A stretch of DNA of 64,000 nucleotides from an uncultured Gammaproteobacteria bacterium (GCA_963729605.1 CAVSNY010000007.1:1280001-1344000); one strand, 5' to 3'; shown: positions 17,882-43,569, counted from the first letter of the stretch. The notes: generated from the letters alone by a model not told the origin. Numbers and translations: made by a program.

Positions 17882-19684
17882 ATGCGCACTCACACCGAGA
17901 AATCCGCCGACGAACACGCCCAGGCCGAGCTTGCCGGCGCCAAAAAACGCAGTGACGCCGCGGCCGTTCAATTCGAAGACCAGCGGTCCGCCGCCCTGGC
18001 GCAAAGGCAATTAAAACAAGCGGCCGATGCCAGCCCGCAGGTAAAACAACTGCAAGCCGCCCAGCAGGCGTCCGACCGCAAACTCACGCCGGGCGCCGCG
18101 CTGGCGCCGGTTCAAAATGCTAATCGGACCGGATTGCCCGATGGATTGAAGACGGGTATCGAAACCCTTTCCGGCCACTCCCTGGACGATGTGAAGGTGC
18201 ACTACAACTCGCCGCGACCGGCGCAGTTGCAGGCCTTGGCCTATGCGCAAGGCGCGGATATTCATATGGGACCGGGTCAGGAAAAACACCTGCCCCACGA
18301 GGCGTGGCATGTGGTGCAGCAGAAACAGGGGCGGGTAAAACCCGGCGTGCGGACACGGGACGACTCCATCAATACCGATCAGGCGCTGGAACACGAAGCG
18401 GATCGGATGGGCGCGCAGGCGCTGAGCGCGGCACGCGAAGCACAGGCGCAGCTTGAACCGGGTATGCAATTGCGGCGCAATCCGGCGGACGGGCCGGTGG
18501 CGCAATTGAAACCCGTCACCGTCACCGTGACGGGCATCACCCATCTGGTGGCGATGAGCGGCGGTTCGGTCATGGAAGGCCGCGAGTATCTGGAAGTGGG
18601 GGAACGCGACGCGCTTTTAATCGACACCGAGGTGAAATACCGTTCCCGGCGCGGGCCCAATCAGAAAATATACGGCGAGTCGGACGAAGAGGGGCCGCAG
18701 GTCTATCGCTGGTTCAAGGTGCTGCAAGTGAACGGCAAGCCGGTGCCGGAGAATATCTTTATCCGCGACGAGACCTTCGTGGCGGAGAGCCCGGAGTTGC
18801 TGGGCAGGCGTCCCGCGAAACTCGATCCTACTCAGCGCGACCGCGTGACACCGGAAGAAGAACCCTTGTTCGTCATTGCCGGCGAGATCGTCGGCAGGGC
18901 GGCCGCGGTCGCGCCCCAGGACGGTGCCATGCGCCGTTTGGTCGAAACCTGGAAGTCGTTCAAAAAGCCCGGTCACGATGTGATGAAGACCTACAAATTG
19001 ATGCAGGTCTGTTATGCCTTGAGCGTCCATCCGCGCATCGCGGTCTTGCTGAAGGACGAGGCGGGCGTAATAAAAGTCAAAAGGATCGTCGCCATCGTGG
19101 CCGGTATCATCGGCCGGCAAATCATCCAGGAGTGGTCTTCCAATCCCAGCGATGACATCGCGAAAAGAGGCGAGGCCTGGACGTTTTTCTGCGACGGGGT
19201 GGAGTATTTGTCGAAGCGGCAGGATCAGCTCAATACGTATTTCGCCAATTGTCTGGAACACGACAAAGGGTATGGCCAAACCCATGCGTCGGCTTCCGAC
19301 TATCTGTTATTCAGCGTCGAATCCAGCGGCGGGGTGGAAGACAGTTTCGTCGATGTGCTGCGCAGGGCCTTGCATGAGCATTCCAATACCAACATCTGGG
19401 ACGGCGGACAGGCCGGCAGCGGTAAATTGAGCGATCAGCTCACGCGCGCGGTTGAAACCGAAACCATGAAGAGCCGGAAACCCGTCGTGCAAGAAGACAT
19501 GATGTGGTCGAGGATCGTGACCGCCGTCATCGACGCCAAGAACCCGGTGCAAAAGGAATGGGCCTACGCCGCCATCATCCGGAAAAACGCCGCGACGCTG
19601 TTCGAGACGGTGAGGCGGTTGGTTCCTACGACTTTCCCCTTGAGTATGGATAGACTCGAAGACGTGTTGTCTCTATTTGGCTAA
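17882..19684 (+). CDS. DUF4157 (eCIS core domain) protein with an unassigned C-terminal region; putative eCIS effector
   Basis: TGLPDGLKTGIETLSGHSLDDVKVHYNS...AQLQALAYAQGADIH...HLPHEAWHVVQQKQGRV...LEHEADRMG is the DUF4157 signature (HExxH). Lies 1 kb upstream of the eCIS on the same strand. Confidence 0.85.
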   Translation: MRTHTEKSADEHAQAELAGAKKRSDAAAVQFEDQRSAALAQRQLKQAADASPQVKQLQAAQQASDRKLTPGAALAPVQNANRTGLPDGLKTGIETLSGHSLDDVKVHYNSPRPAQLQALAYAQGADIHMGPGQEKHLPHEAWHVVQQKQGRVKPGVRTRDDSINTDQALEHEADRMGAQALSAAREAQAQLEPGMQLRRNPADGPVAQLKPVTVTVTGITHLVAMSGGSVMEGREYLEVGERDALLIDTEVKYRSRRGPNQKIYGESDEEGPQVYRWFKVLQVNGKPVPENIFIRDETFVAESPELLGRRPAKLDPTQRDRVTPEEEPLFVIAGEIVGRAAAVAPQDGAMRRLVETWKSFKKPGHDVMKTYKLMQVCYALSVHPRIAVLLKDEAGVIKVKRIVAIVAGIIGRQIIQEWSSNPSDDIAKRGEAWTFFCDGVEYLSKRQDQLNTYFANCLEHDKGYGQTHASASDYLLFSVESSGGVEDSFVDVLRRALHEHSNTNIWDGGQAGSGKLSDQLTRAVETETMKSRKPVVQEDMMWSRIVTAVIDAKNPVQKEWAYAAIIRKNAATLFETVRRLVPTTFPLSMDRLEDVLSLFG

Positions 19685-20721
19685 TCCCGCATTTAGATAA
19701 ACTCCCTGCTTGTATAGCGAATGCATCCCAGCATGATCGAGCAGCGATCCGTGCGAGAGAAATTATTGCGCGGCCGCGCGCTTGTGCGCGTCGGTTTATG
19801 ACAGCCGCCGCCGTCCTGTGAAAAAAATATTGACAGCATTTCTGTCGCATAAGCCTCAGCCGCATGATGGATGGATTTTATTGATATCGATTCAGCTAAA
19901 TGTAGCGAGATGTAGCGAGGGTGCCGCAAGTTGAAGATCGTGTTGAAGGATGAGTGGTAATTGATTGGCCTTGTTATCATTCAGCGTGGAAATGCCATGG
20001 GCGGGCTTGCCGGCTAACATAATGTTAGACACAAAAGAGAATTGCGCTCGGGCGTGAGTAGGTGTAGAAAGAATCCACGCAGTTGGTCATACGAAAAAAA
20101 ATAACAGTCAGCTCATGATGAGTTGACCCACAACAAAGTGCCTTTAGGGAATCCGGCCGGATGGTGGTGGCTGGGTTCACTGTTAGGCGGGCGGCCTTCA
20201 AAGGTCTGCCATCGACGACGCCATAACGGGTGTGGTTCTGGAGGGATGCGACATGGAAGCGGGGTTGGCGATGTTTTCCGATGGAGGTGCACCCATCGAG
20301 GCGGATAATCAGCGCCATGTTTATCCGAGCCAGGCAATAAAAAAATCACGTCGACGTTCACTTGTTCAAAATGGCGCTTTTCCGGCGCCGATTCCCCGCG
20401 CAATCCTTAGATTCGACACTGGCCGATATGCGGTCCCGCGGCCGCATGCGGGCGATGATTCCAGTTTTCCCCTTGGCGGATTTCGCACGGCTACGCCGCG
20501 GCTTGAATTTTCTTTCGGACGGAAAATCCCGGTCGTCCGCCACGGCGATTTATTGCGCGGGCATTGCTCGCGGGCTGCGTCGTTAACCAGGCCGACCGTT
20601 TCAAGTCGGGATATCATCCGCCGTTGCGGTCGCCCGCGCGCTTGACGCGTCGGGATGAGTAGAAATTTTTCCGTTGTAACCGAAAAGTCACGCGTATAAA
20701 TAATAATTAGGATTTCGACTG

Positions 20722-21294
20722 ATGATCGACGCCGCTATCAGCCATATTGCAGGTCAATTGAATCAATACTTAAAAAGTATTTTCGAATTGAGCGAGGATG
20801 TGGTGGTGATCTCCAATATCTTGGAACAAGATGGCAATGTGGCCTCCCACATCAATAACAAGCTCGTGGTGTTTCTGGTCAACATCGAAAGGGACACCTC
20901 GCCGCAACGCCAGCCCAACGGTGTGCCGGGCGGTGAGCGGGCGGTGGTGGGGTTTCCGCCGATCTATCTCAATTTATATCTGATGTTCGCCGGCCACTTC
21001 AGCGGCAAGAATTATCCGGAGGCGCTTAAATTCGTCTCGAATACCATCGCCTTTTTTCAGGGGCATCCGGTATTCGATCATCACAATTCACCGGACTTAG
21101 ATCGACGCATCGACAAGCTGGTGCTGGATATCGAAAACCTGAATTTGAAAGATCTGGGTGCCTTGTGGGGGGCGCTCAGCGGCAAATACCTGCCTTCGGT
21201 ACTCTACAAGATCCGCATGGTCGCGGTGGACGCGGGTGACGTAAATACCCAGGTGCCGACCCTGAAAACTCCGCAAAATTCGTTCAATCACTAG
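20722..21294 (+). CDS. DUF4255 tail terminator/cap protein (Afp16/Pvc16-like)
   Basis: KLVVFLVNIERD, PPIYLNLYLMF, YPEALKFVS..IAFFQ, LWGALSGKYLPSVLYKIRM; first gene of the cluster. Confidence 0.85.
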   Translation: MIDAAISHIAGQLNQYLKSIFELSEDVVVISNILEQDGNVASHINNKLVVFLVNIERDTSPQRQPNGVPGGERAVVGFPPIYLNLYLMFAGHFSGKNYPEALKFVSNTIAFFQGHPVFDHHNSPDLDRRIDKLVLDIENLNLKDLGALWGALSGKYLPSVLYKIRMVAVDAGDVNTQVPTLKTPQNSFNH

Positions 21295-21303
21295 CCGATA
21301 GCC

Positions 21304-22167
21304 ATGGGTGCGTATCTTCCGTTATTCAGCATCGAGGTGGAGCACCGCTTCTTCGCGGCGGGACTCGCTCCGTCATTGACATTCGTGCCGACGCCGGCCT
21401 GCGCGCGCCTGATCGATAACGCGAGTCTCCTGAGAAGAGACACCAACAACGGCCTCCGGTTGTTTTATGACAGCGCGCGCGCCGACGGCTTGCGGCTGTA
21501 TGCCGACGGCGACGAAGCGTGCACGCTGGGTTTCAAGGTCTACGCGCGCGATGCCTTGTTCATGAACTACACCGACCCGCTGACCTATCGGGACGAGGCC
21601 ATCCTCTATTTCGATAATCGCGCGGCCGGCGCCGTGGGCGGCAGGCTGCGTTTGCACCAGGCGGAACATGTGAACGATCGGGATTTCCAGCCTATCGACG
21701 CCGCCCGCGTCGCCGGCCTGCTCGATAAAAAGGATTTGCTGGTCCGGCCGTCGTTTCTGATCGACATCGTATTGGGAGAAGGCGGACTTGGTTTTGCCGA
21801 CTCCGATGCTCCAGTGGCGCGGAATTATTATCTGAGCTTCGACGCCCGCCGGACTTTTTGGAAATATTGCCTGATGGGTGATGCCGCCCGGAAAAATTTA
21901 TTCATAACCGATCTCGCCAATCAAGTGGGGTTCGAGGCCGCGGGTGAGGAAATCTTACCCGATCAACGAACCATGATGGTATTCAGGTCCACGTCGCCCA
22001 TTTCACTGCAAGAACGTTTCGATTATCGGTTCCAGTTGCGGGAACGGGGCACCGGCGCCGGCCGGGTGTTGATCAAACGATTGCCGGTCGCATCGGCGAA
22101 TCACCTCAATAGGGAAATCATCGATGGGGAAGAGCGGGTAGTTTCGGAAATTTATGTCAACTGCTAG
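21304..22167 (+). CDS. eCIS accessory protein between cap and sheath (cap-adaptor candidate)
   Basis: YLPLFSIEVEHRFF N-terminus, F.ARRTFWKY, FRSTSPISLQER, LIKRLP..S and VSEIYV motifs. The position matches the gene after DUF4255 in MAC/AlgoCIS-like loci. Function is inferred. Confidence 0.6.
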   Translation: MGAYLPLFSIEVEHRFFAAGLAPSLTFVPTPACARLIDNASLLRRDTNNGLRLFYDSARADGLRLYADGDEACTLGFKVYARDALFMNYTDPLTYRDEAILYFDNRAAGAVGGRLRLHQAEHVNDRDFQPIDAARVAGLLDKKDLLVRPSFLIDIVLGEGGLGFADSDAPVARNYYLSFDARRTFWKYCLMGDAARKNLFITDLANQVGFEAAGEEILPDQRTMMVFRSTSPISLQERFDYRFQLRERGTGAGRVLIKRLPVASANHLNREIIDGEERVVSEIYVNC

Positions 22168-22186
22168 TCACTGAAAGGACGAGATC

Positions 22187-23746
22187 ATGGGACAGATGAA
22201 GACGCCTGGCGTTTATATCGTAGAGAAAAACGCTTTTCCGAACTCCGTGGTCGAGGTGGCGACCGCGGTGCCGGCCTTTATCGGTTATACCGAGAAGGCA
22301 GACAACAAGGGAAAGGCCTTGGCCAACAAGCCGTGGCGGATCACCTCCATGGCGGAGTTTCATAATTATTTCGGATTTGCCCCGACGCCCTCCTTCGAAC
22401 TCGGCGTCAAGGACAAGCCCGCGGCCGGCGCGCCGCCCGTCCCCGCGGAGGAAGCGCCGGCGTTTTCCTATGCCGGCAAGGATTACACCCTGACCCACAA
22501 AGGCGGCAAATACCTGCTGTATTACAGCATGCTGCTGTTCTTTCAAAACGGCGGCGGGCCTTGCTACGTGGTGTCGGTCGGCAGTTATCAGGACGACATC
22601 GCCGCCGACAAGCTGCAACTGGGCATCGAGCTGCTGGTCAAGGAACAGGAACCCACCATGGTGGTGATACCCGACGCGGTATTGCTGGCCCAGCCGGATT
22701 GCATCAGCGTGCAGCAGGCGGCCTTGTCCCACTGCGGCGGAAAAATGAAAAACCGGGTGGCGATCCTCGATATCTGGGACGGCGCCAAGGATAGACAGGA
22801 TCCCGCCGGCGATCCCATCGAGAAATTCCGCGACGCCTTGGGAATAAATTTTCTCAATTACGCCGCGGCCTATTATCCCTGGGTGAACACCACCATCGTC
22901 CAGGACAAGGACCTGAGCTACGAAAACATCTCCAACAAGGACGTGCTGCAACAGGCGTTGCGGGACGAGCTGCATTTGCCGGACCAGGCCGATCCCACCG
23001 CGTCGGCCAAGGTCAAGCAGCAAATCGACGCGATCAACAACATCACCAGCGATTGGCAAGGGGTGAAGCCGGAAGAGGTCGATACCAATAAACTGCTGTT
23101 GAACAAGACCCTGGTCGTCATGAGTCCGTTGTTCGGCACCGTGTTGACGGAGATCAAGAACAAGCTCAACCTGCTGCCGCCCAGCGGCGCCATGGCCGGC
23201 GTGTACACCATGGTGGATAACGCCCGCGGGGTGTGGAAGGCGCCGGCCAACGTCAGTCTCAACGCGGTGGTGTCGCCGGCGGTGAACATCACCCACGACG
23301 AGCAGGAAGACCTCAACGTCACCACCCAGGGCAAATCGATCAACGCCATCCGCGCCTTCATCGGCGAAGGCACTTTGATTTGGGGCGCGCGGACCTTGGA
23401 CGGCAACAGCCTCGATTGGCGTTACGTCAACGTGCGGCGGACCATGATCATGCTGGAAGAGTCGATCCGGCTCGCCACCAAGGCCTATGTGTTCGAGCCC
23501 AACACCGCCAACACCTGGGTCACCATCAAGAGCATGATCCGCAATTTCCTGACCGGCATCTGGAAACGCGGCGGCCTGGCCGGCGCCTCGCCGGACGACG
23601 CCTTCAGCGTGCACGTCGGCCTGGGCGAGACCATGACCCCGGAGGATATTCTTGAAGGCATTTTGCGCGTCACGGTGCTGGTGGCGATTTCGCGCCCCGC
23701 GGAATTCATCGAGATCACCTTCCAACAGCAGATGCAGAAATCTTGA
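22187..23746 (+). CDS. Contractile tail sheath protein (Afp2/3/4-like)
   Basis: TPGVYIVE, TAVPAFIGYT, LPPSGAMAGVY, GVWKAPAN, WGARTL, WRYVNVRR, VFEPN, RPAEFI. Confidence 0.96.
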   Translation: MGQMKTPGVYIVEKNAFPNSVVEVATAVPAFIGYTEKADNKGKALANKPWRITSMAEFHNYFGFAPTPSFELGVKDKPAAGAPPVPAEEAPAFSYAGKDYTLTHKGGKYLLYYSMLLFFQNGGGPCYVVSVGSYQDDIAADKLQLGIELLVKEQEPTMVVIPDAVLLAQPDCISVQQAALSHCGGKMKNRVAILDIWDGAKDRQDPAGDPIEKFRDALGINFLNYAAAYYPWVNTTIVQDKDLSYENISNKDVLQQALRDELHLPDQADPTASAKVKQQIDAINNITSDWQGVKPEEVDTNKLLLNKTLVVMSPLFGTVLTEIKNKLNLLPPSGAMAGVYTMVDNARGVWKAPANVSLNAVVSPAVNITHDEQEDLNVTTQGKSINAIRAFIGEGTLIWGARTLDGNSLDWRYVNVRRTMIMLEESIRLATKAYVFEPNTANTWVTIKSMIRNFLTGIWKRGGLAGASPDDAFSVHVGLGETMTPEDILEGILRVTVLVAISRPAEFIEITFQQQMQKS

Positions 23747-23788
23747 GCGCGATTTTTAATAACGATGGACAGATAAAGGAGGAGCGTT

Positions 23789-24247
23789 ATGGCAGATGAC
23801 GGATCAGCACAATCTACGGCCATCTGGCCGATACCGAAGTTTCATTTTCAGGTGAAATGGGACGCGCAAGTGATGTCGTTCCAGGAGGTGTCCGGCCTCG
23901 ACGTCGAGTCGCAACCCATCGAGTATCGCCACGGCGACAGCCCGGAATTTTCGGTGATCAAGATGCCCGGCATCAAAAAGACCGGCAACGTCACCATGAA
24001 GAAGGGCGTGTTCAAGACGGATAATAAATTCTGGGACTGGTTCAACCAGATCAAGATGAACACCATCAAGCGCGTGCCGGTCACCATCAGTCTGCTCGAC
24101 GAAACCGGCGCGCCGACCATGGTGTGGACGCTGGCCAACGCCTGGCCCACCAAGATCACCGGCACCGATCTCAAGTCGGACGGCAACGAAGTGGCGGTCG
24201 AATCCATCGAGATCGCCCATGAAGGACTCACCATCGCCAACGGCTGA
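23789..24247 (+). CDS. Major tail tube protein (T4 gp19-like, Afp1)
   Basis: FQEVSGL, IEYRHGDSP, KMPGI, VTMKKG, ISLLDE, WTLANAWPTK, NEVAVESIEIAHE; AGGAGG RBS. Confidence 0.94.
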   Translation: MADDGSAQSTAIWPIPKFHFQVKWDAQVMSFQEVSGLDVESQPIEYRHGDSPEFSVIKMPGIKKTGNVTMKKGVFKTDNKFWDWFNQIKMNTIKRVPVTISLLDETGAPTMVWTLANAWPTKITGTDLKSDGNEVAVESIEIAHEGLTIANG

Positions 24248-24300: not shown

Positions 24301-24332
24301 AAAGGACTATTCTCAGCGCGGCGGGTTTGAGC

Positions 24333-24800
24333 ATGTCGTCCATTTTTACCACCGACGATTATCCACCTTCTTCCTTTTATTTTAAGGTGGTGTTCGCGGC
24401 GACACTGGGTATGACCGACACCTCGTTTCAAAAGGTGAGCGGCATCGGTTCGCAGATCGAGACCGAGGAAGTGGTCGAGGGCGGCGAAAACCGCTACGTC
24501 CATCAACTGCCGACCAAGGTCAAACACCCCAAGCTGGTGTTGGAGCGCGGCATCGCCGCCATCACCTCGCCGCTGGTGATCTGGTGCCGCTCGGTGCTGG
24601 AGGCCGATTTCATCGCGCCCATCGTGCCGATGCCGATCAGCGTGTTTCTCTTGAATGAAAATAAAATCCCGATCCGGGCCTGGACCTTCGCCAACGCCTA
24701 TCCGGTGAATTGGGAAGTGGACAACTTCGCGTCCACCAAAAACGAAGTGGCCATCGAGAAGATCGAATTGAATTACAACTATTCCAACAGGTTGATTTAA
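24333..24800 (+). CDS. Second tail tube protein (gp19-like, Afp5)
   Basis: YPPSSFYFKV, FQKVSGI, EGGENRYVHQLP, LVLERG, AYPVNW, VAIEKIELNY. Confidence 0.9.
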   Translation: MSSIFTTDDYPPSSFYFKVVFAATLGMTDTSFQKVSGIGSQIETEEVVEGGENRYVHQLPTKVKHPKLVLERGIAAITSPLVIWCRSVLEADFIAPIVPMPISVFLLNENKIPIRAWTFANAYPVNWEVDNFASTKNEVAIEKIELNYNYSNRLI

Positions 24801-24803: not shown

Positions 24804-24983
24804 ATGCCGATAGAAGTTCGCGAACTGGTGATTCGTTCCACCGTGCAGCAAGAAGGCGGCGGCGACACCTGCGGCCGCGAGGAAGGCGATGCCGCGCGCG
24901 ATAATCAGGAACTGAAGGAAGACATACTCGCGGAATGCCGCAGGCTGATCTTGGAATTGCTGGCGGAAAGGCGGGAGCGTTAA
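24804..24983 (+). CDS. Small DUF5908-like protein (Afp6/plug-like), 59 aa; absent from the ORF track
   Basis: Manual translation MPIEVRELVIRSTV...EDILAECRRLILELLAERRER*. It fills the gap exactly, and its TAA abuts the next ATG. Confidence 0.8.
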   Translation: MPIEVRELVIRSTVQQEGGGDTCGREEGDAARDNQELKEDILAECRRLILELLAERRER

Positions 24984-25679
24984 ATGGCGGGACTCAGCAC
25001 CGGCCTCAAAAAGAAGTTGAGCATTTCGCCGTGCACCGTCGACAAAAGCGGCACGGTCACCGTCGAAAGCGGCGCCTTCGAGGTAATGCTCAATCCGTCG
25101 TCGTACAGCCATGAGCATTCGATCTGCTACAACCAGAAGAAGACCTTCGGTCAATTGGGTTCCGACAGCAAGTTCAGCGGCGTCAATGCGGAGAAGGTGA
25201 ATTTCGAGATCGTCATCGACGGCACCGGCGTGGTGAATCTGCCGATACCGGGCATCGGTTCGCCCGACGTCAAGACCCAGATCAAACAGCTCAACGACAT
25301 CGTGTATAAATACGACGGCAACGACCACCAGCCCCAGCACGTGCGGCTGTTGTGGGGCAGCCTGATCTTCTTCGGCCGGCTGACCTCGATGTCGGTGTCG
25401 TACACCTTGTTCAAACCCAGCGGCGAGCCGCTGCGCGCCAAGGTCAAGCTGGCCTTCACCGGTTTCATGAGCAAGGAAGAGGAGGCTCTCAAGGCCAACC
25501 GCTCGTCGCCGGACCTCACTCATCTGGTGGAGGTCAAGGCCGGCGATACCCTGCCGTTGCTGTGTCACCGCATCTATAAAGACAGCTCCTATTATCTGGA
25601 GGTGGCGAGGGCCAACAACCTCACCAACTTCCGCGACATCAAGCCTGGCGTCAAACTCCATTTTCCACCGTTGAGATAA
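24984..25679 (+). CDS. Tube initiator / LysM-domain protein (Afp7-like)
   Basis: FEVMLNPSSYS, IVIDGTG, LLWGSL.F.GRL, YTLFKPSGEPLRAKV, and a C-terminal LysM-like VKAGDTLPLLCHRIY...VARANNL. Confidence 0.88.
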   Translation: MAGLSTGLKKKLSISPCTVDKSGTVTVESGAFEVMLNPSSYSHEHSICYNQKKTFGQLGSDSKFSGVNAEKVNFEIVIDGTGVVNLPIPGIGSPDVKTQIKQLNDIVYKYDGNDHQPQHVRLLWGSLIFFGRLTSMSVSYTLFKPSGEPLRAKVKLAFTGFMSKEEEALKANRSSPDLTHLVEVKAGDTLPLLCHRIYKDSSYYLEVARANNLTNFRDIKPGVKLHFPPLR

Positions 25680-25682
25680 GCC

Positions 25683-27476: not shown

Positions 27477-27504
27477 CCAAACGATTACCTTCAAGGAGGA
27501 CACC

Positions 27505-27807
27505 ATGCCGCCCGCGGCGCGAATTACCGACATGCACACCTGCCCCATGCAGACCCCCGCGTTTCCGCCGCCCATCCCCCACGTCGGCGGACCGGTCATC
27601 GGCCCCGGCGTGCCCACCGTGCTGATCGGCAAGTTGCCTGCGTCGGTGGTGGGCGACAATGCGGTCTGCGTCGGTCCGCCGGACGCGATCGTCAAAGGTT
27701 CGGCGACGGTGATGATCAGCAGCCGACCCGCGGCGCGTTTGGGCGACACCACCGCCCACGGCGGCAGCGTCGTGCTGGGTTGTCCCACGGTGATGATCGG
27801 CGGCTAG
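27505..27807 (+). CDS. PAAR spike-tip protein (Afp10-like)
   Basis: MPPAARITDMHTCP, PHVGGP, CVGPPD, PAARLGDTTAHGG. Confidence 0.94.
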   Translation: MPPAARITDMHTCPMQTPAFPPPIPHVGGPVIGPGVPTVLIGKLPASVVGDNAVCVGPPDAIVKGSATVMISSRPAARLGDTTAHGGSVVLGCPTVMIGG

Positions 27808-27817
27808 GACGGCGGGC

Positions 27818-28234: not shown

Positions 28235-28359
28235 AACACCGCCAGGGATCCAGGTCGCGCCAAGCCGTTCCGCATTTTCTCGGCGGCGGCGGGTGCGTGC
28301 TGAATTTAATTGCTTGTTGAATGAACCGCCGTTGTTTCCGGCGATGTGCGGGCACACTC

Positions 28360-33004: not shown

Positions 33005-33075
33005 AGTGTCATTAGCGGTGATGAAGGGATTATTCCAGAGATGATGTAGCGGTCTTATAAAATTCGGGAATAGCC

Positions 33076-35550: not shown

Positions 35551-35556
35551 AATTTT

Positions 35557-38500
35557 ATGTTTCCCAGCATAAAAAATAGGCATGTAATAGAAAAGACGGC
35601 GTTCGAAGTGGCTTATGGCAGCGAAGAGGATGCATTCGCTCAGCATGCGGCTTTAGATGAACTGGTTAAGCGGCGTTTGATAAAGACTGTCGAACAGGTT
35701 TTCGACGAAGTCTCCGATTCGACGAATGTAATACAACTGGGGAGTCTGGAGATAGATCTTGGAATTGTAAATTACGCATCTTATGCGGATGAGATGGATG
35801 AGCGTCTCAGGGAAAGGCTGCGGGAATTATTCCGGAAAAAAATGCGGGTGGAACAAGTAGGCAACTCGCAGACTATCGGTATCCTAAGTGAGGAAAAATC
35901 CGATCTAGTTAAGATGAAGTATTACCTTATTAAGGGTTGTCTTCCATGGAATGCCGAAGCTCTTGATGGTCAGGTGCACGTCGGCCTTCTGGAGCGAATT
36001 CTTAAAAACAGTGCGAAAGATTTTTTAGTATTCCTTAAAAAGACGGAATGCCGGGATATCATTATCAGCCGCTTAGTTCAGCAATTCCCCGGAAAATTCA
36101 TGAAAGAATTGTTTGGCCTTATTACAAACCATCAAGAACCCGACCTTGCTGAATTAGTAGTGCATCTTCAGCGCATTCTCGTCAATTCTACAGTGTTTAA
36201 AAATATGGAGAAGGAAAAAATATCTAATTTTTTCTGGGAAAAGCTATTTGATGCGTTGCTGAGAAAACATTCGTCAGTTAATTCCGATGGAATCCTGGCC
36301 GGCATTATAAAAGCGATTGAATTGATTTCTTATAAAACAGGGGAGAAGTTTTATCGAGTGTTGATGAATGAGATTTTTATATTCATGGAAAATACAGGGC
36401 GAAAAAACAATCTTGATTATATTCGTAAACGATTATCAAGCGCGCCTGATGTCGCAGAAACGAGTTCTCATTCTAATATTGTTTCAGAAATAGCCCAAAA
36501 TAATTTGATGAATATCAATGAAGAAATAGCGGTAAAAAATAATGAATATAATAAATTCCTGCCGAGTATCTCATTTAAAAAGCAGCCGATTAATTATTAC
36601 GGGGAAGGGTGCAACCAAAATAAATTTATATTAATATCTGACGCCAATAAGTTTAATAATATTCCATATATCGGTCAGTCCATACAAGGATTTCCAAGTC
36701 ATAGAATATTAAAAAATTGTAAAAAAAATGACGAGGAATTTTTTGAAGAATCAACCCTCTCTGAAAATTCGGCTGCATGGAATCCTAGTATATTTTCATG
36801 GAGGAAAGAAGAATTTTATAGTTTATCTAAATCACTCCTCGAATCGGAAAATAAAATAGCGGAGAATAATAAAGGTCAAGAATTAAACGACGAAGATATT
36901 CTGAGAGCTTGTGAAATTTATGAATATATACTCCAGAGATTATTTTCAATAAAGGTCGATAATACACATTTAAAATGTTTTGCGTCATTGATTGATGAGC
37001 TTGCCAAAATTTCGGCGGCGCACGTTTTAAAATTGTATAGAGAATTTCAAGTAGAAAAACCATCGGCATCGCAATTGGAGTGCCGGCTTTCTTCTCAAGA
37101 TTTGCGTCGTCTTATAGAAGTCTTTGTTGATCTTGGCCAACAGCAGGATATAAAAGCATCCTCTGCGTTGTTGTATAACATAAATTATTATGCGGATAAG
37201 ACGATTGATGTTAACAGATTTTACGCAAAAATTATTGAGAGAATTTCACGAAATGTGTCTATAGATTTCGATGAAATAATTTGTGAAAAATCTTTTTTAA
37301 ATAAAGAAGAATATATATTCATTACTCAGGATCATGTTTTAAATAATCATGATATTTCAAAAATATCTAATGTAGGTGATGAATCGAAAAATAATCAAAA
37401 TTTAATTGATGATCTGGATTTACTATTTACAGCCGACGATATGCGATCGGCGATCAGGTTCTTCATTGTAAGCGCAGGCTATGAAGGGTCTTCATCTTAT
37501 TCGTTTATATCTAAGATTGAGCATTACTCAGCCCTTGTCATTAATAAAAAGAAATATTATGGAAGAATATTAGAGTGTGTACTTTTAAAAAAGTATATTA
37601 ATTTTAAAAAAATACTTGAATTTTCTTCTGAGAAAATCAATTTAAATTTCGACGATAAAAAACATGATTTTTGCGCATTGAGTCATAATTTTTATTATAA
37701 ATATGCTCAGGCCGTGTCATTGCTTGGAGTGTCTCCCCAAGGCAAAATCGTGCCGTTAGAAAACCAGTCTTCAGGTGATCAATATTTAATCGGATCTAAT
37801 GCTTTTACGCCAGAATGGCGTTCAATGGATCGCCCTACAAAGAAGGGTTCTATTGACGAGATCACTAAAAAAAATATTCGTGGTAATTTTGATAAATCCA
37901 AAAAAAATATAAAAAAAACAATAAAAATATATTATGGAAACAAATCCAAACCAATAAAATTAGAGGGGTACTTGGATGGGGTCGGCGTCGATACGTTGCA
38001 AGTGATAATGCATCGTGCCCCACCATCCTTGAACTTATCGAATTATAAGTTTTTTCAAAAAAAGTCGAGTATAGATAGACATTTTTATAATAGTGATGGT
38101 GGTAATCAGATTCAGCTCATATTTTCTCAAGCCGGCTACAGTAAATATTTAGAGTTGACGCATCGTTATTATAAGTTTTTTGAAAATGACAGGGAATTCT
38201 TTATAGAAGGTCGCTTGATCACAGATAAATTTTATAAGGGAGGTGATGGAGATATCAACACGATTCATTTAAAAAAGCGAGTTAATGAACGCTTGTCTGT
38301 CCAGCCTGTTAATAAATGTATATTAAATTATTTTTTAAAAGTACGAAATTCTAAAATCGGTGTTATAAAAAATGCATATGAGTTTCTTAGCCTGTTCCCC
38401 GTCCATAAAAAAACTATCCTAAATAAACTTGTTGATAACAAATCAAACCAGAGTATTGCCGAAACATCAGGTTTGATCGCTTTGAGTCGGAAGTACATTA

Positions 38501-40635
38501 GTGGCGGTTTTCCAGAAGATTTATCAGAAATCGTCGTTTGCACGCCATCAAGTATAAATTATGACACAAAGAAACATCGCCTTGCATGGCCAAAACTATT
38601 CTTAGTCGAAAATATTATTTCTACTTGCTGGTATGTCGGAAATGATGATGGCATAGTTTTCGAATTTGAAGATATAACTAGTGATGAAATATTTACGGCA
38701 ATTAAAGGTCCTGAAGTTAGTTATTTGATAGAAAATAAATTTGGTATTTATTCCACGCAAGATAAATTGTCAGAGTCACTTTTTCGGGAGTCATTTGAGG
38801 TTTCTGAACCATCGGTAGCGCATGGAGAGAATGCGATATTTTCAGCGCTACCCAATAATGATTTTTCCGGAGTGTCCATCCTTTTAACCGATATTGATAA
38901 TGATACGTCTGACAAGTTTGGTGGCGCATCTATTGTTGCTTCTGCTCATTATTTAAAAGATGCATCTAAGATAAAATATGAAAATATCGATCGGGAATCC
39001 AAAAATGGACCGGATTACGTTTTTAATAATAGATTAAATATAGAATTTCATCGTCATGTCGAGAGCGATTCAGCGTTCGTTGAAAAAAACATGCCGGGTA
39101 TGTGTAATGTGATATGGCGGATTAATAAAAAAATCGACGATGGGAAAAGCGTTTCTGCATATCTTGTAGATCTTTATGAAGTCATATCAGATAAAAAACC
39201 AGTTACGATTCCCTTTGATAGTCTGTCATATTGTTTCTATAAAATTAGAAACAAATGTCTTTCGAGTATGGATAATGTTATTTTTTCATTGGGTAATAGA
39301 AAAATTAATTTTGAATTTTCATCCAAAAAAATTGATGTGAAAATCAATGATTATTCAAATAATAAAAATTCGGTATCTGAAGTAAAAATAAATGAAATAT
39401 TTCAGTATATTTTTCCTGTCCATGCCAAAAATAATTATTTTGATTTGAATTATACTCCGCGGAATGTCGATAGTGAGATGTGGGAGGAAGCGGAAACTAT
39501 TTGTGATAAATTCTCATCAATTATTAAAAAATCCGTCGAATCAAGCGCGGAATTTAATGAAGACGCAACCCCTGGCCAACTGATCCGCGTAATGGATTAT
39601 ATCTTGTCCACTCAGTCGAGGCGGCTTTTTAAGACGTTGCCGCCACGGCTGAGAAATAGGCGTATTTGCGAAAGACTAATTGAAGTGTTGCCCGAACGAC
39701 AGTTGACGAGAATTCTTCTGTTGTTAAAAGCTGAAGAATATCGCCATGTTCAGCTCAGTGCGGATATGATTGTTCAGGCCTGTTATGGTTATAGGCCGGG
39801 CATTAAATTTCCCCAATTAAATTCTTTGAAATGGCGCTTTATATTTTGTTATTTATTCGAGGAAAGTAGATCCTTTGATGAAGAATTGTTTGTGGTTGGC
39901 TTAACCGACTATTTGTCTAAAAAAATAAGTTATGAATCGAATGAGAAATTTCGCTCAGGGCTTTGTCAACGCTTGGCGATGAATATTTTGCCATCCACTC
40001 GTGATCTAAGTTTGAGATTTATTAAAATATTGAGCGCTACGGTTCAGCCGGTAAATGATTTTTCTGAGAATTTTGACGTCTCTCGGTCCGTTATTTTGCC
40101 AAATAAAAAAAATAAACCATTATTCCAATCTTCTGAGCAGATATATATCGCCAATGCCGGACAGGTGTTGGTTGCACCTTATCTCACCAGATTGTTCCGC
40201 ATTCTCAATCTTATGGATCAATCCGTTTTCAGGGATCGAATAGCAGCCGAGCGTGCTGTTCATTTATTGCAATTTATGGTGAATGAACGTGTTGATGCCC
40301 CAGAACATCAGCTTGTTCTTAACAAAATACTATGCGGCATCGATCCTGGATTGCCCATAAAAAAAGAAATTCAAATTTACGACCATGAAATAGAGTTGGT
40401 GGAAAGTCTTTTGCAGGCGGTGATAAAAGCGTGGAGTGGTATTGGGAACACGTCGATTTCTGGTCTGCGCGAAATATTCTTTCAGCGGCAGGGTAGGTTG
40501 TATCTAAAGGGCGATGCCTGGCAGTTGCAGGTTGAGAAGAAATCATTTGACATGCTTTTAGACAAGATTCCATGGAATTACTCGGTAATTAAGCTGCCGT
40601 GGATGGAGCGGGTGATTTATGTTGATTGGCGATAA
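35557..40635 (+). CDS. Contractile injection system tape-measure protein (Afp14-like), 1,692 aa
   Basis: N-terminal LEIDLG and YLIKGCLPW; C-terminal IYIANAG.VL..PYL, LVLNKILCG, FFQRQG.L, FDMLLDKIPW..S.IKLPWM...YVDW; sits between Afp12 and the ATPase. Confidence 0.85.
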   Translation: MFPSIKNRHVIEKTAFEVAYGSEEDAFAQHAALDELVKRRLIKTVEQVFDEVSDSTNVIQLGSLEIDLGIVNYASYADEMDERLRERLRELFRKKMRVEQVGNSQTIGILSEEKSDLVKMKYYLIKGCLPWNAEALDGQVHVGLLERILKNSAKDFLVFLKKTECRDIIISRLVQQFPGKFMKELFGLITNHQEPDLAELVVHLQRILVNSTVFKNMEKEKISNFFWEKLFDALLRKHSSVNSDGILAGIIKAIELISYKTGEKFYRVLMNEIFIFMENTGRKNNLDYIRKRLSSAPDVAETSSHSNIVSEIAQNNLMNINEEIAVKNNEYNKFLPSISFKKQPINYYGEGCNQNKFILISDANKFNNIPYIGQSIQGFPSHRILKNCKKNDEEFFEESTLSENSAAWNPSIFSWRKEEFYSLSKSLLESENKIAENNKGQELNDEDILRACEIYEYILQRLFSIKVDNTHLKCFASLIDELAKISAAHVLKLYREFQVEKPSASQLECRLSSQDLRRLIEVFVDLGQQQDIKASSALLYNINYYADKTIDVNRFYAKIIERISRNVSIDFDEIICEKSFLNKEEYIFITQDHVLNNHDISKISNVGDESKNNQNLIDDLDLLFTADDMRSAIRFFIVSAGYEGSSSYSFISKIEHYSALVINKKKYYGRILECVLLKKYINFKKILEFSSEKINLNFDDKKHDFCALSHNFYYKYAQAVSLLGVSPQGKIVPLENQSSGDQYLIGSNAFTPEWRSMDRPTKKGSIDEITKKNIRGNFDKSKKNIKKTIKIYYGNKSKPIKLEGYLDGVGVDTLQVIMHRAPPSLNLSNYKFFQKKSSIDRHFYNSDGGNQIQLIFSQAGYSKYLELTHRYYKFFENDREFFIEGRLITDKFYKGGDGDINTIHLKKRVNERLSVQPVNKCILNYFLKVRNSKIGVIKNAYEFLSLFPVHKKTILNKLVDNKSNQSIAETSGLIALSRKYISGGFPEDLSEIVVCTPSSINYDTKKHRLAWPKLFLVENIISTCWYVGNDDGIVFEFEDITSDEIFTAIKGPEVSYLIENKFGIYSTQDKLSESLFRESFEVSEPSVAHGENAIFSALPNNDFSGVSILLTDIDNDTSDKFGGASIVASAHYLKDASKIKYENIDRESKNGPDYVFNNRLNIEFHRHVESDSAFVEKNMPGMCNVIWRINKKIDDGKSVSAYLVDLYEVISDKKPVTIPFDSLSYCFYKIRNKCLSSMDNVIFSLGNRKINFEFSSKKIDVKINDYSNNKNSVSEVKINEIFQYIFPVHAKNNYFDLNYTPRNVDSEMWEEAETICDKFSSIIKKSVESSAEFNEDATPGQLIRVMDYILSTQSRRLFKTLPPRLRNRRICERLIEVLPERQLTRILLLLKAEEYRHVQLSADMIVQACYGYRPGIKFPQLNSLKWRFIFCYLFEESRSFDEELFVVGLTDYLSKKISYESNEKFRSGLCQRLAMNILPSTRDLSLRFIKILSATVQPVNDFSENFDVSRSVILPNKKNKPLFQSSEQIYIANAGQVLVAPYLTRLFRILNLMDQSVFRDRIAAERAVHLLQFMVNERVDAPEHQLVLNKILCGIDPGLPIKKEIQIYDHEIELVESLLQAVIKAWSGIGNTSISGLREIFFQRQGRLYLKGDAWQLQVEKKSFDMLLDKIPWNYSVIKLPWMERVIYVDWR

Positions 40636-40639
40636 TCAC

Positions 40640-41986
40640 ATGGCGGGTAATAATGTGAACGCAGCATTTTTTGAGAAAGAAATAGCTTGGTTCTCTACAG
40701 TGCTGGAAACACGTATTAGTCTCTATTTTGAACAAGATTGTCCATATCACAGCATTTATGAACTCGTTCCCCCCGCGGTGGAAGGAGACGCTTCGGAGTA
40801 TGCAAAACTAGTAAGAAAATACGATATCGATTTCGATGAGCGTATCGTACTCATCCTGGCGCTATTGCCCCACATACGCCCTCAAGCGCTGGATACATTT
40901 TTCATTCAGAATAAAAACTTTGATAGGAATTTTACCGAGTTCGGCGGCTGGAAAGCTAAAAATCATGGTGGATTCTTGCCTACTTGTGAAACGGCGGCTT
41001 TTATTCTGGCAGGTACCGATTTGGCGAAACGTTTCGAAATTATAAGGCTATTCGAACGTGAGCATTTTTTTGCACGGAAAGATATTTTAAAAGTTGAACA
41101 TCCTGGTAATAACGAATCTTTTTTTAGTAGCGCCTTGCTTATTACCGCCGAGTATATAAATCGTTTTACCTCCGGAATCTATCATAAGCCCGATTACAGC
41201 ATTCACTTTCCAGCCAAACTCATTACTACCCAACTGAGCTGGGATGACTTGGTTCTGGCGCCTGAAGTGCTCGATGAAATCGAGGATATCATGGCGTGGT
41301 TGAAGCATTCCGGGACCATTCTGCAAGATTGGAATTTGGCGAAGGCGATTAAGCCGGGATACCGCAGCCTTTTTCATGGGCCGCCGGGTACGGGCAAGAC
41401 TCTAACCGCGACACTTATCGGTGCCTCCGCGGGTGTCGACGTTTATCGCATCGATCTTTCCATGGTGGTCTCCAAATATATAGGCGAGACTGAAAAGAAT
41501 CTGGCCAACGTCTTCGATCAAGCTCAGCACAAGAATTGGATATTATTTTTCGATGAAGCCGATGCCTTATTCGGAAAACGGACCCAGACTTCCAGCGCCA
41601 ACGATAGGTATGCCAATCAGGAAATTTCTTATCTGCTGCAACGTATCGAGGATTTTCCTGGCGTGGTTATTCTGGCTACCAATCTCAAGGCCAATATCGA
41701 TGAAGCATTCGCGCGTCGTTTTCAGACAGTGGTCTATTTTCCATTGCCGGATCCCGAGCAGCGGCTGCGTTTGTGGCGGGGGATATTAAATGGGAAACAG
41801 CGGCTCGCCGCGAATGTTGATTTAGAAAGTCTGGCCGAGGATCATGAATTATCCGGTGGCGCGATTATTAATGTGGTGCGTTACGGCGCCATTAGCGCGT
41901 TGAAAAAATCGGAAAATCTAATTACCTATGACGCCCTTTTGAAGGGAATAACCCGTGAGCTGATGAAGGAGGGGCGTACCCTCTAA
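40640..41986 (+). CDS. AAA+ ATPase of the eCIS (Afp15/Pvc15-like)
   Basis: GYRSLFHGPPGTGKT Walker A, VVSKYIGETEKNL, LFFDEADALFGKRT Walker B, DRYANQEISYLLQRIE, IDEAFARRF. Confidence 0.93.
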   Translation: MAGNNVNAAFFEKEIAWFSTVLETRISLYFEQDCPYHSIYELVPPAVEGDASEYAKLVRKYDIDFDERIVLILALLPHIRPQALDTFFIQNKNFDRNFTEFGGWKAKNHGGFLPTCETAAFILAGTDLAKRFEIIRLFEREHFFARKDILKVEHPGNNESFFSSALLITAEYINRFTSGIYHKPDYSIHFPAKLITTQLSWDDLVLAPEVLDEIEDIMAWLKHSGTILQDWNLAKAIKPGYRSLFHGPPGTGKTLTATLIGASAGVDVYRIDLSMVVSKYIGETEKNLANVFDQAQHKNWILFFDEADALFGKRTQTSSANDRYANQEISYLLQRIEDFPGVVILATNLKANIDEAFARRFQTVVYFPLPDPEQRLRLWRGILNGKQRLAANVDLESLAEDHELSGGAIINVVRYGAISALKKSENLITYDALLKGITRELMKEGRTL

Positions 41987-42063
41987 AGTTGAATGTTGGA
42001 CGCCTAGTTTTTTCATTTTTCATGGAATGAATGATCTCGCGATATTAAGGATAAAGATATCAA

Positions 42064-43569
42064 ATGAAAAAGATAGCTGAGTATATGTTGTATTTACTCC
42101 TATTGGTTTATTGGAGTGCGGCTGGCGCCGCTGAAAATACCGGCATGGTTGAACGGTCAGGTTCGGTTTCCGAGAACGCCGCTAGCGAAACCGTTACCGT
42201 CGAGCCGACGGTTGATGTGAGCGTTCCGAGTGCTGTAATGCTGGATACCGAGGTACCTTCGCAACCGACGCCGGCATCAGCACCGGCAGTCGTGCTTCCG
42301 GCCGCGCCTGAGCTTCCTGTGCCGGCATCTTCGTTTAGTCAGCGCTTTAATCCGCCAAAGCCGGATCAATCGGATGCATTTCCTGTATGGGAGGCGACGG
42401 ATTGCGGTTGTGTCCCTGATTCATCTATGCAGACTTATGGCTTTTTCCGTATCGATGGTCAAGTTGCGCCGGCCAAGATAAATTTTGAGGCATTGTCGCG
42501 TGTCGCTTATTTTTCACTGTCTCCCGATATGGTAGGCAATATCGAAGTACCGGAGGCGTGGAACGGCAAGAATTTTACTCAGGTTGCGCATCGTTACGCG
42601 ACCGATGTCGATTTGGTGATAAGTCAACATGAGTGGTGTTCCGAATCGTCTAAGACCGCGTGTTTACATGATGCATTGGAGCTGGATAAAAGTTATGTCC
42701 TGCAAAACTTGATCGATGAAATAGTCGAGGCCACCAAAGCGGTTGAGGCGGATGGGGTGACCATAGATTTTTCAGGAATTCCAAGCGAACTTAATAACGC
42801 CTATCATTTTTTCATAAAACGTTTGAGTAAACGCTTGCAGCAGGAGGATGTCGAATATCGGCTTAACGTGATTGTGGAAAACGTGGCCGAGCTTGAACGC
42901 CTCTTCAATAGAAAAGATATTCTGGATGGTTTGAGCGATAGCAAAGATTATGTCAATTTATTCATAATCGGTTGGCCGAATGGCGGTGATCAGGCTGAAG
43001 TGGTAAACCAGCTGGACAATGCTTTCTGGAAAAGTGGTATTGAGTCAAATCAGGCCCTGGTGATGCTTGATGCTTCTGATCGGGAATTCTCGGTCAAATA
43101 CGATTTAATACTTAAAAGGAATTTCGGCGGAGTCGGTATATGGGACTTGGCCCATGCCGATGATGCTTGGAATACCACGATCATGGCCGGGTTCGCGCAG
43201 GAGGCTCAGCAGCAGAACGTCGATTATGTAAATCAAGTGTTGCAAAAGATCTTGCCGGCAAGTTTTTGTAAGTTTATCTGCCCGAACCGAGACATTATTA
43301 GCGGTGTACTTTCCATCGTAGCCGGGATTTATATAATTATAATTTTGTCGGCGATTGTATTCTTCGAATTGCGCGATTTTTTGAAAAAATATATTTTGTA
43401 TGTAATCGGACTTGGCTTGACGATTGTTGTGGTGTTTATTTCCATAGTGATTTGCGTTCCCTTTTGGCGAGGTTATCAAACGGAGATTACTTTGTTATTA
43501 ATACTTTCTGCGCTTGGCTATTTCCTGAAAAGCAATGCCGATAAAAAACGAGAAGCTAATTATCCGTGA
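42064..43569 (+). CDS. Exported GH18 (chitinase)-fold-like protein with a degenerate catalytic motif and C-terminal transmembrane helices
   Basis: Signal peptide (...SAAGA|AE), Pro/Ala-rich linker, LSRVAYFSL, ADGVTIDFS (vs DGxDxDxE), FGGVGIWDL, and 2-3 hydrophobic helices at the C-terminus. Confidence 0.6.
   Translation: MKKIAEYMLYLLLLVYWSAAGAAENTGMVERSGSVSENAASETVTVEPTVDVSVPSAVMLDTEVPSQPTPASAPAVVLPAAPELPVPASSFSQRFNPPKPDQSDAFPVWEATDCGCVPDSSMQTYGFFRIDGQVAPAKINFEALSRVAYFSLSPDMVGNIEVPEAWNGKNFTQVAHRYATDVDLVISQHEWCSESSKTACLHDALELDKSYVLQNLIDEIVEATKAVEADGVTIDFSGIPSELNNAYHFFIKRLSKRLQQEDVEYRLNVIVENVAELERLFNRKDILDGLSDSKDYVNLFIIGWPNGGDQAEVVNQLDNAFWKSGIESNQALVMLDASDREFSVKYDLILKRNFGGVGIWDLAHADDAWNTTIMAGFAQEAQQQNVDYVNQVLQKILPASFCKFICPNRDIISGVLSIVAGIYIIIILSAIVFFELRDFLKKYILYVIGLGLTIVVVFISIVICVPFWRGYQTEITLLLILSALGYFLKSNADKKREANYP

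Follow-up and report, generated by a model that had tools for sequence, protein, structure and literature searches.

We analysed a 64,000-nucleotide stretch of DNA (hereafter the window) from an uncultured Gammaproteobacteria bacterium (GCA_963729605.1, CAVSNY010000007.1:1280001-1344000) and found that the locus at positions 17882-43569 is, as judged from its predicted proteins, a genuine and complete contractile injection system (CIS) of the SalCIS type in an environmental bacterium, a kind known since 2026. The source genome (G000) is a 3.48-Mb assembly of 7 contigs with 61.0% G+C and 94.5% completeness, in which the window corresponds to G000:C7:1280001-1344000. SalCIS is the system of Salmonella enterica subsp. 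salamae described by Ejaz et al. (Nat Commun, April 2026; PMC13266070; PDB 9r9h, 9r9i, 9r9n, 9rce and 9r9a), who also delimit a newly recognised cluster of related operons. According to that account, SalCIS particles are typically 600 nm long (600-700 nm in minicells) and adjoin the inner membrane, and their secretion or release was not detected (PMC13266070). The parts it describes include a single sheath protein, a cap adaptor Cis16b, an extended Cis11, a trimeric Cis13 that is a predicted anchor, a Sec-exported Cis20 with three transmembrane helices and a hydrolase-like periplasmic domain, and two HEXXH effectors, one with DUF4157 (PMC13266070).

Through sequence searches of the PDB, we found that the sheath of the window aligned with SalCis2 (9r9h_T) from residues 1-519 to 1-519 with E 1.4e-217, the next best match being Alg2 (E 1e-108). 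About 64% of its residues are identical to SalCis2 (~333/519, counted on the alignment), and of the X-loop salt-bridge residues of SalCis2, read from the same alignment, K43 is kept, D322 is changed to E and R84 to A. Cis11 matched SalCis11 (9rce_A, 1323 amino acids [aa]) at 2e-156, ahead of the corresponding proteins of the Anabaena system tCIS (2e-105) and of AlgoCIS (Alg11, 1e-94). Its residues ~431-518 aligned ambiguously to SalCis11 393-474 or 498-560, at the site of the helical domain IV of SalCis11 (419-549), and it looks as if Cis11 carries a helical insert there that is apparently shorter. Cis12 matched SalCis12 (E 2.6e-78) and, nearly equally, Alg12 (1e-74). For the remaining two proteins, SalCIS chains were the sole PDB hits: SalCis16b (9r9n_C) for a 287-aa protein, weakly and over its C-terminal 114 aa (E 4.8e-6), and SalCis20 (9r9a_B) for a predicted envelope protein, across both its domain and its transmembrane region (E 2.3e-10). 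The locus further resembles SalCIS in its single 519-aa sheath, a cap made of Cis16a and Cis16b, a long Cis11 (1304 versus 1323 aa), a protein at the Cis13 position, a Cis12 that lacks the extension of the tCIS type (824 aa, against 804 aa in SalCis12), a Cis20 with predicted Sec export, GH18-like domain and three transmembrane helices, a DUF4157/HExxH cargo candidate and the lack of a lysis cassette.

The original prediction, made from the sequence alone, had described an uncharacterised system closest to loci of the MAC/AlgoCIS type. The branch it pointed to, that of AlgoCIS and the membrane-anchored T6SS-iv (T6SS, type VI secretion system), was right, but SalCIS and not AlgoCIS is closest for the sheath, Cis11, Cis12, Cis16b and Cis20, and a characterised counterpart thus exists. 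The locus is not nearly identical to any characterised extracellular CIS (eCIS): since its sheath is ~64% identical to SalCis2 and its accessory proteins are far more distant (Cis16b E 5e-6, Cis20 E 2e-10), it is a further member of the SalCIS type and not a duplicate. The complete eCIS-type locus, its DUF4157 cargo candidate, its long ruler (tape-measure protein) and its membrane-anchored GH18-like gene were all borne out. The three features that had looked puzzling there, a long ruler, such a membrane-anchored gene and the lack of a lysis cassette, are hallmarks of the SalCIS type.

The open reading frames (ORFs) and a Pfam scan of them showed 18 co-oriented genes at 17882-43569, all on the + strand, in agreement with the inventory, position and orientation predicted earlier. 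The features are as follows:

17882-19684, +: candidate cargo with DUF4157/eCIS_core, 600 aa (Pfam, E 2.4e-8)
19685-20721, no strand: gap of 1 kb between cargo and cap, without a convincing ORF (ORF list)
20722-21294, +: cap (Afp16/Cis16a), Pvc16_N (Pfam, E 1e-32)
21304-22167, +: Cis16b-like cap adaptor, 287 aa, no Pfam family (PDB match to SalCis16b)
22187-23746, +: single sheath, 519 aa (Pfam; SalCis2, 9r9h, E 1.4e-217)
23789-24247, +: tube 1, gp19-type (Pfam, E 1e-49)
24327-24800, +: tube 2, gp19-type (Pfam, E 7e-36)
24804-24983, +: plug (Afp6/Cis6), DUF5908, 59 aa (Pfam, E 7.8e-16)
24984-25679, +: tube initiator (Afp7/Cis7), CIS_tube, 231 aa (Pfam, E 4.5e-45)
25683-27476, +: VgrG spike (Phage_GPD and Phage_base_V), in three frames in the assembly (Pfam; tblastn)
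27505-27807, +: PAAR tip (Pfam, E 6e-23)
27818-28234, +: gp25 wedge (Afp9) (Pfam, E 6.5e-23)
28321-32235, +: Cis11 cage protein, Baseplate_J, 1304 aa (Pfam; SalCis11 match)
32228-33004, +: 258-aa protein at the Cis13 position, fibre- or anchor-like (position; conservation in relatives)
33076-35550, +: Cis12 cage protein, 824 aa, no Pfam family (SalCis12, E 2.6e-78)
35557-40635, +: ruler, CIS_TMP, 1692 aa (Pfam, E 4.5e-106, two ends only)
40619-41986, +: AAA+ ATPase (Afp15/Cis15), 455 aa (Pfam AAA, E 8e-30)
42064-43569, +: Cis20-like envelope protein, GH18-like, 501 aa (SalCis20 match; hydropathy)

The eCIS core set is thus found in one locus, with homologues of Afp1/5, Afp2-4, Afp7, Afp8 (split), Afp9, Afp11, Afp12, Afp14, Afp15 and Afp16. 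The 17 genes other than VgrG are intact, including the 1692-codon ruler frame in DNA of 33% G+C. The LysM domain that had been assigned to the 231-aa protein survives as a LysM-like C-terminal motif seen by eye, but Pfam reports none at E <= 1; VgrG, taken before as one gene, is read in three frames by tblastn. The 258-aa protein had no Pfam, NCBIfam or PDB match. The gap between cargo and cap is possibly the regulatory region of the operon; promoter scans of 17-22 kb did not rise above shuffled sequences, terminator scans were likewise uninformative, as were both scans of 41.5-46.5 kb, and Rfam found no family at 19685-20721, its sole match being a tRNA at 10870-10957. The 33 ORFs scanned in the flanks are housekeeping genes (GH94 glucan synthase, TadA-like deaminase, Pst/PhoU, SBF, metallophosphoesterase, cytochrome c, Lcl_C, two ferritins, photolyase, AhpC, LysR, aconitase and RND efflux). 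None of them belongs to a head, holin, endolysin or T6SS membrane-complex family, as had been predicted for the window, and neither the locus genes nor these ORFs include the TssJLM membrane complex or ClpV of a canonical T6SS.

Comparison with other characterised systems gave partial likenesses. AlgoCIS of Algoriphagus machipongonensis (PDB 7adz, 7aeb) shares clade Ib, the core parts and HExxH cargos loaded by an AAA+ ATPase, but it is ~121 nm long, with a 526-aa ruler and a 692-aa sheath, and no Cis20-type membrane protein of it was matched. AlgoCIS particles are released from the cell. The tCIS (PDB 7b5h), a membrane-attached CIS that is anchored to the thylakoids of Anabaena, matched the sheath (E 7e-98), Cis11 (2e-105) and Cis12 (1e-73), but its Cis12 has 1335 aa with a large extension, against 824 aa in the window. 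With the group of the T6SS-iv of Amoebophilus asiaticus and the Aureispira and Saprospira CISs, the window shares relatives of Cis11 and of the 258-aa protein in the same local gene order, found in Saprospira grandis DSM 2844 and in metagenome-assembled genomes (MAGs) of Aureispira and Saprospiraceae; Cis11 is only 27-33% identical there and the sheaths 47-50%, and no ruler match was found within the flanks examined. In the SalCIS report, Cis13 and the baseplate geometry tie SalCIS to these membrane-anchored T6SS-iv, Aureispira and Saprospira systems (PMC13266070).

On this basis, the locus probably encodes a machine of the SalCIS-like cluster (clade Ib, with AlgoCIS and T6SS-iv) that would be held at the envelope instead of being released by lysis, and would fire a DUF4157 cargo outward. 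The baseplate cage of Cis11, Cis12 and gp25, with the VgrG-PAAR spike and the plug, would nucleate the tube and the single-protein sheath. Both would then grow along the 1692-aa ruler until the Cis16a/Cis16b cap closes them, and the middle of the ruler would serve as a lineage-specific spacer whose reading frame is preserved and whose length differs between close relatives. By analogy with work on AlgoCIS and PVC, the AAA+ ATPase may load the DUF4157 protein into the tube through its disordered N-terminus; a role of the ATPase in cargo loading is described for AlgoCIS in a preprint (bioRxiv 10.64898/2026.05.27.728243). As in SalCIS, the 258-aa Cis13-like protein and the Sec-exported Cis20-like protein with its three transmembrane helices would hold the machine at the envelope, with outward firing and no lysis release. 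The target may be a neighbouring microbe, as the zincin-like HExxH domain and the SH3b-like domain of the cargo weakly hint.

A released eCIS like AlgoCIS, PVC or Afp has to be weighed against this. Lysis would then free the particles, the 258-aa protein would act as a fibre that binds targets, and the lysis genes would lie elsewhere or have escaped recognition. The core inventory is that of an eCIS, AlgoCIS chains are the next-best PDB matches, and the authors of the SalCIS report allow that release may have been missed, the conditions of activation being unknown (PMC13266070). Against release stand the Cis20 membrane protein and the Cis13-like protein, both marks of the SalCIS cluster, and the absence of any lysis family in the window. 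Genome-wide, Phage_lysozyme (PF00959) and the Rz spanin (PF03245) had 0 matches in the 94.5%-complete genome; this search, part of the wider lysis-gene check proposed originally, covered these two families only and counts weakly. We regard a released particle as improbable.

Several observations weigh against an envelope-held machine of the SalCIS type. The Cis16b and Cis20 matches to SalCIS are weak, and membrane anchoring of SalCIS itself is only partly shown. In the account of the SalCIS paper, the operon is bidirectional, with the ATPase upstream of two effectors (PMC13266070), whereas the genes of the present locus all point the same way, with the cargo gene ahead of the cap gene. Cis20 has 501 aa, against 864 in the SalCis20 chain and 740-1011 in relatives, and is thus ~360 aa shorter than in SalCIS. 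It reads DGVTIDFS at the GH18 motif DxxDxDxE, without the catalytic Glu, which is also missing in 6 of the 7 aligned family members. The SH3b-like matches of the cargo, at Z <= 7.2, are within a range that the tool calls common. Lastly, VgrG is broken as assembled, and if the breaks are real, the spike would lack its beta-helix and the seat for PAAR, and the machine would probably be dead. Two further differences from SalCIS concern the host, an environmental bacterium of 61% G+C, and the ruler, which is AT-rich with an orphan middle.

In the Cis20-like protein we found a predicted signal peptide, a Pro/Ala-rich linker, a GH18-like domain (Pfam score 25.4 bits, below the cut-off of 29.6) and three C-terminal transmembrane helices by hydropathy. 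Cis20-like ORFs of 740-1011 aa adjoin the locus in all five relatives' genomes searched, and one is also present in G005, which belongs to a different genus of the host family. At the motif position, the chain of SalCis20 has DGITLDID. The catalytic Glu is thus missing in the window, in SalCis20 and in most of the aligned family members, and we consider it no less likely that Cis20 binds or acts as a scaffold than that it hydrolyses. These results argue against a canonical GH18 enzyme.

The cargo candidate has a disordered N-terminus, followed by the DUF4157/eCIS_core domain, in which HEAWH stands at residue 139; a beta domain (~210-300) and a helical domain (~325-600) come next. Structure models reached a predicted local distance difference test (pLDDT) score of 66 for the whole protein and 84 for residues 320-600. 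In VIA comparisons, the modelled beta domain (210-300) was nearest to the cell-wall- and teichoic-acid-binding SH3b domains of S-layer proteins, autolysins and endolysins (Z 5.0-7.2, root-mean-square deviation 2.0-3.3 Å, 59-71 residues aligned). Foldseek with both models returned nothing at E <= 0.001, and for the helical domain the best VIA match (Z 4.5) was uninformative; the cargo had no PDB sequence hit at E <= 1 and no NCBIfam match, and the ESM Atlas gave no usable hit for its C-terminus. Six proteins share the C-terminal 400 residues of the cargo at 35-95% identity, and 5 more share a part of them; DUF4157 is present in 8 of these 11, which in sequence terms is the arrangement typical of polymorphic toxins associated with eCIS. 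In its DUF4157 domain the cargo shares 59-67% identity with proteins encoded upstream of the relatives' loci, and it may correspond to either SalCgo1 or SalCgo2; a homologue of SalCgo2, a HEXXH effector, is reported in every operon of the SalCIS-like cluster (PMC13266070). The genome-wide search for other DUF4157 genes, proposed with the original prediction, found 5 in all. Three of these (G000:C6:12405-12602, C7:21605-21802 and C4:283627-283824; frames of 289, 380 and 548 aa) are found apart from the two CIS loci of the genome and are possible orphan cargos.

The other CIS locus is a second, different eCIS-like locus on the - strand at G000:C3:336000-361100 (L051, L052). Its sheath has 527 aa and is 41% identical to that of the window over the C-terminal part. 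It also contains genes for a sigma-54 activator, a gp19 tube protein, a 667-aa AAA+ protein with a winged-helix domain, a papain-like protein, a CIS_tube protein, a 1216-aa DUF4157 protein (105 bits), a 171-aa Phage_base_V spike and Baseplate_J proteins of 269 and 1041 aa, the latter with PA14; no CIS_TMP match was found there. This sheath type is the commoner one in the host family (G000, G001, G002, G005 and G006).

The ruler is the most unusual part of the locus. The CIS_TMP model matches it only at ~1-240 and 1337-1691, so that conserved N-terminal (~1-260) and C-terminal (~1340-1692) domains enclose a lineage-specific middle of ~1000 aa encoded in DNA of 30-36% G+C. In a search of 1.84 billion representative proteins with the middle (301-1330), P0003 alone matched along its length (76% identity), and the other 19 hits covered only a module of ~130 residues at ~440-583. 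With the whole ruler, a word-indexed search returned P0002 (1605 aa) and P0003 (1691 aa) as relatives over the full length, and 9 further hits that matched only 10-19% of the query. No match was found by sequence search of the PDB or in two scans of JGI metagenome contigs, and the ESM Atlas gave scores of only 0.75-0.76 for the middle, to CIS_TMP clusters, a lead at best. TRF detected one 42-nucleotide array only, and self-BLAST of the protein no repeats. Between the ruler and P0003 the identity is 0.85 in the N-terminal domain, 0.74-0.77 in the middle and 0.90 in the C-terminal domain, the middle diverging ~2.4 times faster than the C-terminal domain. The ruler of G005 (1407 aa) aligns with that of Pseudohongiella over ~1130 aa, while the middle of the window ruler aligns with neither, which indicates that it was replaced, or diverged past recognition, in the window lineage.

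Length varies even among close relatives. P0002 is 87 residues shorter, in three blocks. We compared near-relative contigs from four runs of four studies (X1, X3, X4 and X14), and the four ruler indels listed among them are all multiples of three: -6 nucleotides at 36530 (X4), net -48 nucleotides at 36786-36836 (X1, X3), 105 nucleotides replaced by 102 other letters at 38401-38507 (X4) and +3 nucleotides at 38926 (X3, X4). According to the AlgoCIS preprint, the 526-aa Alg14 sets particle length at 0.229 nm per residue, and the slope across CISs is 0.2156 nm per residue (bioRxiv 10.64898/2026.05.27.728243). Extrapolated with this ruler coefficient, the particle of the window would be ~365-390 nm long, about three times AlgoCIS, and that of the 1605-aa variant ~20 nm shorter by the same arithmetic. 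A tape measure is absent from the main text of the SalCIS paper (0 occurrences; PMC13266070). We offer tentatively, and consider unlikely as it stands, the idea that the ~1000 middle residues are a lineage-specific spacer selected almost only for frame and length and not for sequence. Such a sequence-agnostic spacer would account at once for the lack of homologues, the fast divergence, the in-frame length change and a drift to ~30% G+C, a value that may be close to the mutational equilibrium of the organism.

From ~0.65 near 27 kb, the G+C content of the locus declines gradually to 0.30 at 36.5-39.5 kb, and it is not restored before 48 kb; the original prediction does not mention this trough. 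GC3, the value for third codon positions, is 0.83 in the sheath, 0.90 in VgrG, 0.71 in Cis11 and 0.62 in the 258-aa protein, then 0.43 in Cis12, 0.34 in the ruler, 0.48 in the ATPase, 0.48 in Cis20 and 0.56-0.69 in the next five genes. The ruler value is the lowest of the 2165 genome ORFs of at least 300 aa (median 0.74), and in 10 relatives the G+C of the ruler equals that of its locus. The five genes with depressed GC3 that follow Cis20 (43973-47343) encode a metallophosphoesterase, a SoxA-like cytochrome c, an Lcl_C-domain protein and two ferritins; the metallophosphoesterase gene, the only one of the five sought, was not found in the 30 kb of G005. Other stretches of low G+C (0.39-0.45 in 2-kb windows) occur at G000:C5:80000-88000, C5:157000-167000 and C7:1211000, none as low as the ruler region.

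We considered how this trough may have arisen. A chimeric assembly of two organisms joined at the change in G+C would fit a genome that behaves as a metagenome-type assembly with frame errors, but the island lies inside a 1.4-Mb contig, and contigs from other studies bridge it at ~93-96% identity (X4, 39,522 bases, spanning 25001-44500; X3, 10,882 bases, spanning 25001-35159); contradicted by these, a chimera is hardly credible. The AT-rich 3' half (Cis12, ruler, ATPase and Cis20, to ~47 kb) could instead have been acquired through recombination, the donor being an as yet unsampled AT-rich carrier of a related system. In favour of import, GC3 drops from 0.83-0.90 to 0.34-0.48 within one operon, whereas the rulers of 10 relatives equal their loci; the ruler middle lacks a homologue beyond its lineage among the 1.84 billion representatives; and the G005 ruler middle aligns with that of Pseudohongiella over ~1130 aa, which the middle of the window ruler does not. 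The change is a gradient and not a step, however, and the G005 locus shows a milder GC3 cline of the same sign, from 0.80 to 0.57. Trees of 13 rows were built from the 5' genes (the two tubes, Cis7, the N-terminal part of VgrG, PAAR and gp25) and from the 3' genes (Cis12 and ATPase), and both made the window sister to G005, with support of 100/99 for the 5' tree and an SH-aLRT of 99 (quick search) for the 3' tree. The terminal branches of window and G005 are symmetric (0.14/0.12 in the 5' tree, 0.64/0.64 in the 3' tree) and of similar relative depth. Import from a distant lineage is disfavoured by this shared pairing, symmetry and depth, and we hold import to be rather unlikely; we lean slightly towards AT enrichment in place, centred on the novel middle of the ruler.

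The state of the spike gene bears on whether the machine could work in this strain. Through tblastn with the 597-aa VgrGs of five relatives, we read the gene in frame 3 at 25683-26990, frame 2 at 27011-27211 and frame 3 at 27204-27473; the annotated ORF ends at 27020 (445 aa, against ~597 aa in relatives). The out-of-frame pieces are still 52-78% identical to relatives, and the last matches DUF2345 (Pfam, E 1e-4). In all four runs the contigs are one base short at 26990 and again at 27009/27010, and in three of the four, as listed, also at 27212, so that the VgrG of the window has three single-base insertions (net +3) relative to its near relatives; all four further show a +1/-1 pair at 26447/26461. 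These five single-base differences all fall within 770 bases of VgrG, unlike what random error would lead one to expect, and the remaining indels in 25001-44500, among those listed, either fall between genes or have lengths divisible by three. At 2572-9462 (+), the glucan-synthase gene is broken up in a similar way, its four overlapping ORFs lying in different frames; it has an 822-aa frame, against 2907-3002 aa in three relatives, and is either a pseudogene or the product of assembly indel errors. It encodes GT2, glucoamylase, two GH94 supersandwich and GH94 catalytic domains and is cyclic-glucan-synthase-like. Genome-wide, we counted 249 overlapping ORF pairs of the same strand, different frames and high GC3, a count without a control genome to which we give no weight.

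If the frameshifts are real, the locus would be inactive in this strain and the system heading for loss. The three frames of VgrG and the contigs of four runs and four studies without the extra bases are what one would expect then, as is the patchy occurrence of the locus: 2 of 12 family genomes have the SalCIS-type sheath, and none of the 3 same-genus genomes has the ruler. The other 17 genes are intact, though, down to the 1692-codon frame in DNA of 33% G+C, and the three insertions sum to +3. The split glucan-synthase gene in the same window, the 94.5% completeness despite 7 contigs and the conservation of the out-of-frame pieces suggest assembly errors. Decay of the locus therefore appears quite unlikely to us, and the VgrG breaks are likely assembly indel errors.

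A scan with one genome per species showed Cis11 relatives at 27-39% identity in 34 of 114 candidate stretches, carried by uncultured Gammaproteobacteria, Pseudohongiella, Cellvibrio (including C. mixtus J3-8) and an Oxalobacteraceae MAG, and more distantly by Saprospira grandis DSM 2844, Aureispira and other Bacteroidota. Where contigs suffice, the gene order is that of the window: DUF4157, cap, Cis16b, sheath, two tubes, Cis7, VgrG, PAAR, gp25, Cis11, 258-aa protein, Cis12, ruler and ATPase. The Cis16b-like protein is kept at 31-41% identity, and the 258-aa protein at the same position at 27-54%, including in Saprospira and Aureispira MAGs. Ruler ORFs in related loci have 1410-1679 aa, or >2088 and >2122 aa where contig ends cut them, and database homologues range from 1103 to 2252 aa; because the rulers of related loci are also long, a long ruler is a family trait. 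One locus, L025 (PAOF01000030.1), lies on a contig labelled Candidatus Neomarinimicrobiota and groups tightly with a Gammaproteobacteria MAG, next to Pseudohongiella, which may reflect a binning error or a transfer.

Closer to the host, the SalCIS-type sheath is present in two of the 12 family genomes (G000 and G005), and the window ruler in 1 of 40 relatives; the three same-genus genomes without it are 96, 99 and 75% complete. The locus of G005 is syntenic, with identities to the window of 91% for tube 1, 86% for tube 2, 86% for Cis7, 69% for VgrG (intact, 597 aa), 48% for Cis11, 69% for the 258-aa protein, 45% for Cis12, 77% for the ATPase and 50% for Cis20. In G005 (L041, G005:C81) a DUF4157 cargo gene of 400 aa at 19668-20867 lies downstream of Cis20 and not upstream of the cap, and the glucan-synthase gene is on the same contig at 57-59 kb, so that the neighbourhood is common but rearranged. 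Twenty runs of 12 studies contain a share of 0.20-0.34 of the sampled words, and the contigs of close relatives come from biofilter, wetland and bioreactor metagenomes; there is no RNA run among the 24 runs listed.

This locus stands out by its orphan, AT-rich and length-variable ruler, by the G+C trough, by a Cis20 that is short and lacks the canonical catalytic residue, and by a spike gene that is broken as assembled. Machines of the SalCIS type are not peculiar to Salmonella, since related loci occur in environmental Gammaproteobacteria (Pseudohongiella, Cellvibrio and the window lineage) and in Bacteroidota. The locus yields divergent sequences of the least-understood parts of the family, Cis20, Cis13 and Cis16b, and the extreme G+C trough inside one operon is an unexplained evolutionary signal. 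With family rulers of 1,400 to >2,100 aa, the rule of 0.22 nm per residue becomes testable far outside the measured range, and the in-frame ruler variants of near-identical strains are a natural counterpart of the engineered AlgoCIS ruler mutants. If the spacer reading of the ruler were true, the G+C trough would mark a local relaxation of whatever holds the rest of the genome G+C-rich, and natural populations would use ruler indels to adjust how long a 350-400 nm machine becomes and thus how much cargo it can take.

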